Source: Clostridia bacterium
GTDB lineage: Bacteria; Bacillota; Clostridia; Christensenellales; UBA1242
Assembly: GCA_017467585.1 (NCBI GenBank)
Contig: JAFUSR010000004.1
Coordinates: 600,620 to 664,619, forward strand
Length of the DNA: 64,000 bases
Direction: 5' to 3'
The position numbers and the translations under genes are program-made. The notes beneath the pieces are model-generated. The model was not told the origin of the DNA, ran no database searches, and saw only the letters and a program-made list of their open reading frames with translations. Each line of letters starts with the position of its first letter. Position 1 is the first letter of the stretch. Below, one piece after another: positions 29,439 through 31,069 of this stretch.

Positions 29439-29951
29439 CTACATTGAACGTTCTTGCAAATCAACAGAATAATAAACTTCTTTTGTTTTTGAATTTGTAA
29501 CTGTTTCAATCTTAGAGGTTTCTGCCCCAATTATTTCACCTAATCGTTCAATGTCACCAAGATAAAAAATACAGTCATCACTTAAATATTGAGATCTTCC
29601 CATGTCTTCAAGTGCTAAGCTATAACCATGAGTTTCATAAGAAAAATTCACCACAAAATTTTTGTCTTTTTGGCTGACATTAACATCATAAAATGTTATT
29701 ATCTCTGAATCTCTGTCTTTATAAGCATAGCTATAGCTAATTTCTTTCTTCGGAAATTCAAGTGATTCATAGTTCAAACCGACGGCGTTCATGTCTGATA
29801 GCGCACGCTTAACAATTGACGAATCTATTTTAGACAAATATTCATCAGCTGTGATTTTAGGATAAAAGAACACAATTTTGCTGCAGCCCGCAAGTGGAAA
29901 CGCAAACATTGTTGCTGCAGTTAATAACAATTTTTTTGAAGGTCTTTTCAT
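29439..29951 (-). CDS. Hypothetical lipoprotein
   Basis: Basic N-terminus, hydrophobic stretch and LAGC lipobox; GGAG RBS. Confidence 0.75.
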   Translation of the reverse strand: MKRPSKKLLLTAATMFAFPLAGCSKIVFFYPKITADEYLSKIDSSIVKRALSDMNAVGLNYESLEFPKKEISYSYAYKDRDSEIITFYDVNVSQKDKNFVVNFSYETHGYSLALEDMGRSQYLSDDCIFYLGDIERLGEIIGAETSKIETVTNSKTKEVYYSVDLQERSM

Positions 29952-30025
29952 ATAATTCTCCACAAACATTTTTTACAGCATGCATTATATTATACATTAA
30001 CTCTTTTGTCAATATTGATTTTCAC

Positions 30026-30048
30026 AAAAAAAACACCTGGCGGTGTTT
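30026..30048 (-). terminator. Intrinsic terminator immediately after the tRNA 3'-half copy
   Basis: Minus strand AAACACC-GCCA-GGTGTTT followed by a T-run. Confidence 0.75.
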
Positions 30049-30052
30049 GTTT

Positions 30053-30085
30053 TGGTGAATCGCCAGGGGTTAGCCAACTGGACCC
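30053..30085 (-). pseudogene. Degenerate 3' half of tRNA-Lys (variable loop, T-arm, acceptor, CCA)
   Basis: GGGTCCAGTTGGCTAACCCCTGGCGATTCACCA matches the intact tRNA 3' end at 27/33 positions; the T-loop is altered. Confidence 0.75.
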
Positions 30086-30184
30086 AATGTATGCGACAGC
30101 ATTCAGGGGTGCGACAATATGTTAAACAATGGTTTTTTGCAAATCACATATTAAGCAAGGTAGAATTCCTGGCGAAAAATAAAT

Positions 30185-30209
30185 AAAAAAAACAGGCTTT
30201 TGCCTGTTT
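30185..30209 (-). terminator. Intrinsic terminator after tRNA-Lys
   Basis: AAACAGGC-AAAA-GCCTGTTT followed by a T-run. Confidence 0.85.
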
Positions 30210-30214
30210 CATTT

Positions 30215-30290
30215 TGGTGGATCGCCAGGGGTTCGAACCCTGGACCCCCTGATTAAGAGTCAGATGCTCTACCAACTGAGCTAGCGATCC
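30215..30290 (-). tRNA. tRNA-Lys(CUU), 76 nt, CCA encoded
   Basis: GGATCGC/GCGATCC acceptor, GCTC/GAGC D-stem, anticodon loop CT-CTT-AA, CAGGG-TTCGAAC-CCCTG T-arm. Confidence 0.97.
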
Positions 30291-30410
30291 ATGATAACAT
30301 AATTTTCTCTGTTTTTTAGATTGGGTCCAGGGAAACCCTTCCGCTCGCACCAAAGTGCTCGCACGCTTTGGCTAAAAACTTGCCACTGGCAACTTTTTAA
30401 ACGCGTCGCG

Positions 30411-30454
30411 CCCAGATTAAGAGTCAGATGCTCTCCTAGCTGAGCTAGCGATCC
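30411..30454 (-). pseudogene. 5' half of a second tRNA-Lys(CUU), ending after the anticodon stem
   Basis: 40/44 nt identical to the intact tRNA 5' part; then replaced by ~90 nt of hairpin-rich non-tRNA sequence with no T-arm or acceptor 3' strand. Confidence 0.85.
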
Positions 30455-30484
30455 ATATTCGCTTAAAATGAACGAACAAATAAT

Positions 30485-30514
30485 ATTATACACATATCAA
30501 GCAAAAAATCAAGA
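30485..30514 (-). promoter_or_regulatory. Sigma-A-type promoter for the tRNA locus
   Basis: TTGATT-N18-TATAAT upstream of the 5'-half copy. Confidence 0.6.
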
Positions 30515-30529
30515 ACTTTTTTTGTTTTG

Positions 30530-31069
30530 TTAAAACTTTTGATTGTTGCTTTCTATTCCGTAAACATTTTGATAAATCAGGTTTAAACAATTGTTAACAT
30601 CTTTAGCAAAATCTTTGTGAGTCATTATATTAAGTTTTAAATTTGAAATAAAATTTTTCTTGCGGTAACTTGGCTGAAAATAGCAAATGTTGTGATGAAC
30701 AAAATTTAACTTTTCATAAAAATGAATTCTTCGTTGCGCAATGGCGTTCTCTGGTGGTTCAACTTCAAAAATAATATTATTGCCATATTTTTTGTTAAAC
30801 TCAGTTAAAATTTTTGTTCCATATCCACGTCCACGAAAATCTGGCAAGACTGCAAAATGCTCAATAAAATAAAAGTCTTTAACCTTCCAATAAACAAGAT
30901 AAGCAACCAAATCGTTTCCATCATAAAAAAATCTTGGGCAAAACTGTTTGTTGTTTTCAATCAAATTTCTAATTTGGGTTTTTGTTCTTCTTTCGACAGA
31001 AGGAAAATCTTTTTTGTGAATTTCATAAAAATAATCAACTTCCGCCGTGGTTATTGGTTCAATTCTCAT
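30530..31069 (-). CDS. GNAT family N-acetyltransferase
   Basis: FIEHFAV.P.FRGRGYG acetyl-CoA loop, IIFEVEPP, RRIHFYE. Confidence 0.9.
   Translation of the reverse strand: MRIEPITTAEVDYFYEIHKKDFPSVERRTKTQIRNLIENNKQFCPRFFYDGNDLVAYLVYWKVKDFYFIEHFAVLPDFRGRGYGTKILTEFNKKYGNNIIFEVEPPENAIAQRRIHFYEKLNFVHHNICYFQPSYRKKNFISNLKLNIMTHKDFAKDVNNCLNLIYQNVYGIESNNQKF

Follow-up and report, generated by a model that had tools for sequence, protein, structure and literature searches.

A repeated hairpin-forming module and an independent 3' copy flank an intact tRNA-Lys(CUU) gene in a Clostridia genome

The window, a stretch of 64,000 nucleotides from a Clostridia bacterium (GenBank assembly GCA_017467585.1, contig JAFUSR010000004.1, positions 600,620 to 664,619), belongs to a genome of 0.97 Mb with 37% GC, four contigs and 37 tRNA genes, which is referred to here as the source genome, G000; related genomes are numbered from G001 onward. 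The sole tRNA gene of the window, tRNA-Lys(CUU), was located at 30290..30215 on the minus strand by ARAGORN and by Rfam (69 bits), and the neighboring genes encode GNAT, lipoprotein, SDR, MetRS, NUDIX and MscL proteins. The tRNA gene is intact, has no second Lys(CUU) counterpart in the source genome and, as the original prediction had proposed from the sequence, stands between two partial copies of itself. We use X for the conserved part of the upstream insert and L for the tRNA piece ahead of X. The features in transcript order are as follows.

30485..30512, minus strand: sigma-70-type promoter (TTGATT-16-TATAAT), found by a consensus scan with 10/12 positions matched, driving the L-X-tRNA transcript
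30411..30454, minus strand: L, a duplicate of tRNA-Lys(CUU) positions 1-44, 40/44 identical
30338..30412, minus strand: X core, a covariance-model match (63.7 bits, E=3e-11), running GGCGCGACGCG, TTTAA, P2 hairpin (30398-30374), TAGCCAAAGCG, P3 hairpin (30362-30343), GGAAG
30319..30337, minus strand: X tail, including CCCTGGACCC (30332-30323), the reverse complement of tRNA positions 44-53
30291..30318, minus strand: A-rich spacer from the X tail to the tRNA, not conserved across genera
30215..30290, minus strand: intact tRNA-Lys(CUU), found by ARAGORN and Rfam
30185..30210, minus strand: intrinsic terminator 1, of the tRNA transcript
30086..30184, minus strand: unique 99-nt segment from terminator 1 to the 3' copy, occurring once in the genome
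30053..30085, minus strand: 3' partial copy of tRNA-Lys(CUU), positions 44-76, 27/33 identical without gaps, ending ACCA, with a degenerate T-loop
30026..30048, minus strand: terminator 2, directly after the 3' copy

Both halves were found where they had been predicted (30454-30411, 40/44, corresponding to tRNA positions 1-44; 30085-30053, 27/33 and ending ACCA, corresponding to positions 44-76), as were the promoter (30512-30485) and the two terminators (30210-30185 and 30048-30026). The segment before the 3' half, given as ~90 nt, measures 99 nt. The insert described as a hairpin-rich piece of ~90 nt does contain hairpins (P1, P2 and P3), but the stretch from L to the tRNA is 120 nt long and consists of a 75-76-nt core, a 19-nt tail and a 28-nt spacer, the first GG of the core overlapping the end of L and being common to both. 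In L, the acceptor strand is unchanged, and the D-loop and one anticodon-stem base are altered. Both partial copies abut one point, a G run at tRNA positions 43/44. The claim that the halves together rebuild one full tRNA is correct as to this shared junction and the coverage of positions 1-76, but their D- and T-loops are degenerate and a terminator lies between them, so that a functional tRNA-fragment system using the halves as a pair, one of the options originally offered, is unlikely. A split or permuted tRNA gene was likewise rejected, as L has lost the G18G19 context, the T-loop of the 3' copy is changed and the halves are separated by a terminator. Overlapping contigs from three metagenome samples tile 29900-30650 with zero differences and matching depth, which excludes the mis-join that the original prediction had named as a risk.

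X is present in six copies in the source genome, all upstream of tRNAs and each placed in sense orientation between promoter and tRNA. At the present locus it begins with GGCGCGACGCGTT after the 5' copy; the five further copies lie in tandem before tRNA-Lys(UUU) (two copies) and singly before tRNA-Leu(UAA), tRNA-Asn and tRNA-Thr(CGU), and each of these is preceded by the exact or near-exact first 19 nt of its own tRNA, ending at G18G19 in the D-loop. The L piece at tRNA-Leu has no sequence relation to those at Lys, Asn and Thr, and the promoter-L-X-tRNA layout is repeated at the Asn, Leu(UAA) and Lys(UUU) modules. The upstream segment is a repeated module, contrary to the possibility that both segments are unique; of the two, it recurs widely at other tRNAs, whereas the downstream one does not. 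A covariance model made from the six copies detected X in 15/41 relatives, nearly all in one family of ~1-Mb genomes, and a core pattern search of one-genome-per-species bacteria found it in at least 120 stretches, nearly all of which, among the matches listed, are from gut or rumen Clostridia MAGs (Christensenellales, Oscillospiraceae and Ruminococcaceae). Tandem arrays of the form (L-X-spacer)n occur. The core pattern also matches three viral contigs, and on a viral contig that has X twice, nrdDG and PhoH were found but no mobilizer. X-bearing contigs were also found in metatranscriptomes, where the assembled contigs show presence and core edges. Rfam returned only tRNAs and no match to X, with E up to 5 on the source-genome copies and up to 0.01 on six public loci; X as a known Rfam RNA (riboswitch, ribozyme, sRNA, T-box or tmRNA) was dismissed for want of a covariance-model match. 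Full-text literature searches on tRNA-leader motifs, bridge RNA with tRNA and palindromic elements in tRNA genes gave no description of X, which is, as far as these searches show, widespread in gut and rumen Clostridia and undescribed. We are highly confident that the 5' half and the insert belong to the X family and that the locus is no assembly artefact.

The edges of the X core were defined by contigs of unrelated organisms, which diverge exactly at two points 76 nt apart; only long forms were available for edge definition by long/short pairs among the loci examined. The 76-nt core is GC-rich and forms three hairpins: P1, in which core positions 3-5 pair with the GCG of AAAGCG; P2, a 10-bp helix; and P3, a hairpin with tandem G.A at its base. 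A GAC/AAA internal loop and a UUAAG/UA loop are conserved. Analysis of 58 distinct cores indicated that P1 and P2 together had standard pairs in 93.9% of cells versus 67.7% in shuffles, two-sided changes in 175 cells versus 52, and a covariation score of 0.61 versus 0.15, with slid controls all at most 0.10. Pair 3-52 is C-G in 42 copies and G-C in 14, and nearly all of the 62 distinct P2 sequences fold to a helix of ~10 bp. Across the stems, 702/752 cells are Watson-Crick, while G.U accounts for 4 and A.C for 8 (G.U on the X strand, 4, versus on the opposite strand, 8), with no wobble asymmetry. Such nearly pure Watson-Crick pairing, with G.U as rare as A.C, points to stems that are probably selected as palindromes at the DNA level rather than at the level of RNA alone. 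P2 scores as terminator-like, and the fold of the L-X leader is unexceptional (z = -1.8). Direct reading of the sequences revealed no terminal inverted repeats, as the left end is GGCGCGACGCG and the A-rich right ends (e.g., CAAACAATACTATA) do not match it in inverted form.

Among the matches listed, about one fifth of the public X copies adjoin a tRNA, and 104/130 have no tRNA within 450 nt downstream. The other public copies are mainly between convergent genes (27/71, among the matches listed) or just after a same-strand gene, and they often interrupt a terminator-like hairpin or sit in another repeat. A 5'-UTR riboswitch was ruled out, since X is found mainly 3' of genes or between convergent ones. 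A flanking direct repeat with at most two mismatches was detected at 14/72 copies versus 3/72 in the control, mostly at tRNA-linked copies, among the matches listed; the repeats are 17-46 bp or more in length, and in repeat-flanked copies X starts at a nearly constant distance (157-187 nt) from the junction of the intact target. With such a repeat at only ~20% of copies, target-site duplication at every copy was rejected and is no general property of X.

Three junction classes can be distinguished among the tRNA-linked copies of relatives. In one, the junction is at G18G19 of the D-loop and X is sense to the tRNA; in another, found only at tRNA-Lys(CUU) and in G000, G007 and G016, it is in the variable loop at position 43/44; in the last, it is at the border of T-stem and T-loop, X is antisense to the tRNA, and the flank corresponds to the last ~16 nt of the tRNA plus the terminator, in reverse complement. 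Antisense copies make up about half of those linked to tRNAs in relatives. On the left, the flank is identical to the target as far as the junction, which is always at GG; this flank rule also applies in other genera, and likewise where X is antisense and flanked by the 3' end of the tRNA. G008 and G036 additionally have X within a dead tRNA copy that lies downstream of the live gene. The tail, in turn, is often the reverse complement of the target just past the junction: cognate tails of the Lys(CUU) and T-loop types match at 9-11 of 12 positions, versus a mean of 6.9 for non-cognate ones, and the D-loop-type tail is the complement of GGTAGAGC or GGTAGCGC across the junction, with a weaker match in the source genome. 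At tRNA-Lys(CUU), the tail element of the present locus is complementary to positions 44-53, and the tails in G007 and G016 are complementary to positions 43-54 of their own tRNAs; in G016, both the tRNA and the tail differ, yet they still match each other. Simple insertion is insufficient to account for a tail that is complementary to the target past the junction and changes with the tRNA, and this tail rule suggests either selected base pairing or a target-recognition segment.

The two sides of the locus occur independently in relatives. At the syntenic site of G001, a member of the same genus, tRNA-Lys(CUU), the terminator, the SDR gene (78.5% identical) and the MetRS gene are present without X and without partial copies, which is the empty allele that the original prediction had suggested looking for; G001 and G002, also of the same genus, both lack X. 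G007 and G016 have L(1-44), X and tRNA-Lys(CUU) with no clear 3' copy, L being 44/44 identical in G007 and matching the acceptor stem of the genome's own tRNA in both. G003 lacks X, and its tRNA and SDR gene are separated by tandem units of 59 nt plus positions ~40-76. In G004, a Thr(CGU)-type L with X precedes an identical tRNA-Lys(CUU) with no 3' copy (the site listed as L168 and L030, on contig C52 of G004), where tRNA leaders appear to have been exchanged through recombination between X copies. The gene for the 176-aa lipoprotein in the window (29439-29969, minus strand), which separates the 3' tRNA copy from the SDR gene and has a perfect TTGACA-17-TATAAT promoter, is also absent from the syntenic G001 locus, and thus may have been gained or lost along with the downstream rearrangement.

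Comparison of X cores between sites suggested two modes of evolution. D-loop-type cores are 87-97% identical within a genome, and at the orthologous Asn sites of G000 and G004 the cores are 70% identical with spacers at 86%, which indicates concerted evolution or recent spread within a genome. The three Lys(CUU)-type modules, on the other hand, are mutual nearest relatives across genera (79-86%), so that the module of the present locus, with its junction at 43/44 and L of positions 1-44, belongs to an old site-specific lineage common to three genera. As L in each genus has the acceptor-strand sequence of that genus, it may have been maintained by gene conversion from the adjacent tRNA, by selection or by re-creation with each insertion.

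On the downstream side, the 99-nt segment has no second copy in the source genome, and the segments at other such sites are likewise locus-specific, with no shared family. A search with filters off and E up to 10 found no decayed X between the tRNA and the 3' half. The segment opens with TCGCCAGG (30175-30168), which is able to pair with CCTGGCGA of the 3' copy, and the two together fold as a rod (z = -3.2); the 3' copy has TTGGCTAA where the tRNA has GGTTCGAA. Comparable downstream 3' copies are present in the source genome at Glu(CUC), Leu(UAA), Arg(ACG) and Asn, and in G003 at tRNA-Lys(CUU). Those at Glu and Leu(UAA) are plain tandem duplications starting inside the tRNA, given that the sequence following the tRNA is found again behind the partial copy. 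Both lie outside the window, the one at C1:58179-58700 starting from the last 19 nt of tRNA-Glu(CUC) and the one at C2:589007-589560 from the last 10 nt of tRNA-Leu(UAA); they span 130-150 nt downstream, including the terminator, with copies 96% and 84% identical. Also outside the window, at C3:100-327, a 35-nt copy of the 5' end of tRNA-Ile(GAU) lies 109 nt upstream of the gene, with no X between. The 3' copy at tRNA-Lys(CUU), together with its own terminator, fits an old duplication of the tandem type or a displaced attR-like end, and would have arisen separately from the X side.

As the original prediction had stated, no integrase is present, in that none was found within ~80 kb of the locus. 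The source genome has three tyrosine recombinases, at 330 kb, 336 kb and 548 kb of contig C2, the locus being at 631 kb, and integrases adjoin tRNA-Leu(CAA) and tRNA-Leu(AAG), where a partial tRNA copy is present. The block at C2:330025-336191, outside the window, in which ~5 kb from tRNA-Leu(CAA) to tRNA-Leu(AAG) is enclosed by two tyrosine recombinase genes, probably represents a small integrated element; a 5' partial copy of tRNA-Leu(CAA) (positions 4-50) lies 45 nt upstream of that gene. RT, IS110 DEDD, TnpB, Y1/HUH and IS4 DDE enzymes are absent from the source genome, and none tracks the presence of X. By domain, PF01609, PF01548, PF07282 and PF01797 are absent from the source genome and nearly all of its family (f1); Y1 (PF01797) occurs in only 6/41 genomes and is absent from most X carriers, IS110 DEDD (PF01548) occurs in 3/41 genomes, all without X, and RT (PF00078) is absent from the source genome and 12/15 X carriers. 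A search for the IscB RRXRR domain gave no match, with control genomes equally silent. As to X as an OMEGA guide RNA of IscB or TnpB, which would call for an effector nuclease gene, TnpB is absent from the source genome. The family f1 genomes (G000-G024, ~1 Mb) are almost without IS110, IS4 and TnpB transposases and mostly without RT and Y1; their repeat modules are nonetheless homogeneous within each genome.

Taken together, we lean towards regarding X as a non-autonomous palindromic DNA element whose insertions into tRNA loops survive by partial duplication of the target, and which now forms part of a leader RNA. The locus would then be an intact tRNA-Lys(CUU) flanked by the products of two unrelated events. 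In the upstream event, X (76-nt core, tail and spacer), spreading as DNA, would insert at GG sites in hairpin-forming DNA, that is, terminators, other repeats and the D-loop, variable loop or T-loop of tRNA genes. As 17-46 bp of the site would be duplicated at tRNA genes, X would end up between a truncated L, on its far side, and a complete tRNA, on its near side, and would then be co-transcribed within the pre-tRNA leader. In the downstream event, a segment from the same G run would have been duplicated, or left as the attR-like end of a lost integrated element, and the 3' copy would have decayed afterwards. Against an insertion element weigh the failure to find a mobilizer, the lack of terminal inverted repeats and the direct repeat at only ~20% of public copies. 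Furthermore, the sense orientation and promoter-proximal position of all six copies in the source genome make a function possible, and not only the survival of harmless insertions. A rival reading takes X as a domesticated cis-acting pre-tRNA leader that delays or gates folding and RNase P processing, with the tail pairing with the tRNA (positions 44-53 here, the D-arm in the D-loop types), L competing for the 3' acceptor strand, and P2 possibly serving as a weak attenuator. The uniform placement between promoter and tRNA speaks for it, as do the tail complementarity that tracks the tRNA sequence in G016 compared with G000 and G007, the retention of each genus's acceptor strand by L, the Lys(CUU)-type lineage kept across three genera, the terminator-like score of P2 and the X contigs in metatranscriptomes. 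We nevertheless regard this reading as unlikely, given that X is antisense to the tRNA at about half of its tRNA-linked sites in relatives, that most copies (the 104/130 above, among the matches listed) have no tRNA nearby downstream, that many relatives, including G001 and G002, do without X, and that the stems lack the G.U pairs typical of RNA-level selection while the fold score is only z = -1.8.

The same flank and tail relations could mean that X is the guide-bearing part of a programmable recombination or transposition system, in which L and the tail read the two target strands around the junction. The arrangement of left flank, core and inverted right flank recurs at three junction classes in both orientations, cognate tails exceed non-cognate ones (9-11 of 12 versus a mean of 6.9), and the junction is always GG, but the carriers (for Y1, most of them) lack an IS110, TnpB or Y1 enzyme, L is simply flanking DNA, the D-loop tails of the source genome match their targets only partly and most X copies have no such target relation, all of which makes this improbable in our estimation. 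X as the non-coding half of a programmable insertion system, with the enzyme supplied in trans by a phage or an unrecognized host protein, is to be rated just as low; if it were true, one 76-nt scaffold would home to the loops of many tRNA genes and to terminators while enough of the target is copied to keep the tRNA alive. More doubtful still is the nested cassette first proposed, an insertion of ~325 bp (X, spacer, tRNA-Lys, terminator and 99 nt) at 43/44 of an older tRNA-Lys gene. It would explain why the halves share the G-run boundary and jointly cover positions 1-76, and it is in keeping with spacings of 164 and 162 nt and with an 11-nt match, including 3 non-tRNA bases, between the reverse complement of the X tail (GATTGGGTCCAGGG) and the junction of the 99-nt segment with the 3' half. 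The separability of the 5' and 3' sides among relatives argues against a single cassette, however: L(1-44), X and the tRNA occur without a 3' half in G007 and G016, 3' copies occur without X in G003, the leader is a different one and the 3' half is absent in G004, and the G001 allele is a plain tRNA. In addition, no other X locus has a matching outer 3' half, D-loop-type modules never being accompanied by outer positions 20-76 downstream, and the 99-nt segment is unique. The remaining option of the original prediction, two successive integrations, holds insofar as separate events fit best with sides that are independent in relatives, but not insofar as both copies are taken for integrase scars. 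tRNA genes are classic att sites, and the reading of both partial copies as scars of integration and excision at tRNA-Lys(CUU), with X as the remnant arm of an integrative element, could call on the integrases and partial copy at tRNA-Leu(CAA)/tRNA-Leu(AAG), on the resemblance of the 3' copy with its own terminator to a displaced attR end, and on the tandem 3' copies at the syntenic G003 site. We consider it very improbable, because an attP-carrying element cannot account for near-identical X cores at five tRNAs, each with its own flank, and also in view of an upstream duplication that represents the 5' rather than the 3' end of the tRNA and of the lack of an integrase within ~80 kb.

The preferred reading of X as a palindromic DNA element was compared with known systems. 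REP/BIME, pneumococcal BOX, RUP and SPRITE are small interspersed palindromic repeats of bacteria, and Rickettsia palindromic elements insert into genes without destroying them (PMC10969869). X resembles the former group in being short, multi-copy, non-coding, hairpin-forming and mainly 3' or intergenic, and in forming mosaic clusters with insertion of elements into one another and copies alike within a genome. It differs in its fixed 76-nt three-helix core with conserved unpaired GAC/AAA, UUAAG and tandem GA, in its occurrence inside tRNA genes with a compensating duplication and in carriers without RAYT or another transposase; with regard to REP/BIME, X consists of multi-copy extragenic imperfect palindromes, but the RAYT is missing from the source genome and most X carriers. 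Like MITEs and Rickettsia palindromic elements, X is non-autonomous and ~100-200 bp in size, has direct repeats flanking its tRNA-site copies and is tolerated inside essential genes of reduced genomes. Unlike them, it has no terminal inverted repeats, and its duplications are long and variable (17-46 bp) and limited to ~20% of copies; none of the MITE hallmarks (terminal inverted repeats, fixed-length duplication at all copies and a related autonomous IS) was found, and the host gene is saved by duplication, not by in-frame insertion as with Rickettsia elements.

A partial tRNA copy beside an intact tRNA is also seen at the att sites of integrative elements, and this likeness may apply to the 3' half, which does represent the 3' part of the tRNA (44-76) that such scars duplicate; L (1-44) and the 1-19 pieces at four tRNAs do not. 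No integrase accompanies X, the tRNA part duplicated next to X is the 5' end, or the last ~16 nt where X lies on the other strand, and one X type serves many tRNAs. The target loop of the IS110 bridge RNA and the guide bases at IS200/IS605 ends are target-recognizing segments. X is like these in that the flanks of its core relate to both sides of the target junction on opposite strands and that its targets are hairpin-forming DNA, but it has no recombinase or Y1, its L is long and plain flanking DNA, and its scaffold is unrelated. An overview of the IS110 bridge RNA or seekRNA and of the IS200/IS605 internal guide sequences is available (PMC13604230). R2 elements and their ORF-less derivatives are co-transcribed with the RNA gene that they occupy (PMC3414825). 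X likewise is a structured 5' module on the promoter of a host RNA gene, flanked by sequence of that gene; it differs in that RT is absent from the source genome and 12/15 X carriers, in showing no evidence of self-cleavage and in its bacterial setting.

X accounts for a class of odd tRNA loci in which truncated 5' or 3' tRNA copies surround a GC-rich insert, and its covariance model lets annotators recognize them. If X is mobile, it is an example of a parasite that resides in single-copy essential RNA genes of 1-Mb genomes with survival of the host and no resident transposase, and if the flank and tail relations are functional, they would represent a new mode of DNA-target recognition or a new layer of pre-tRNA control. 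X-carrying Clostridia contain mosaics of several small repeat modules, and at L049:6576-6607 a second short conserved block, commoner still in metatranscriptome contigs, is located ~30 nt downstream of X. ARAGORN found no tmRNA in the source genome. The tmRNA gene of G016 has an X-like piece immediately on its 3' side, after which comes an apparent copy of the 3' end of that gene. At C4:27100-27330 of the source genome (minus strand, outside the window), an X-like P2 hairpin is present within an RNA-like stretch ending in a T-arm, an acceptor strand and a CCA-like sequence, which may be an ssrA-linked X variant or an interrupted ssrA.
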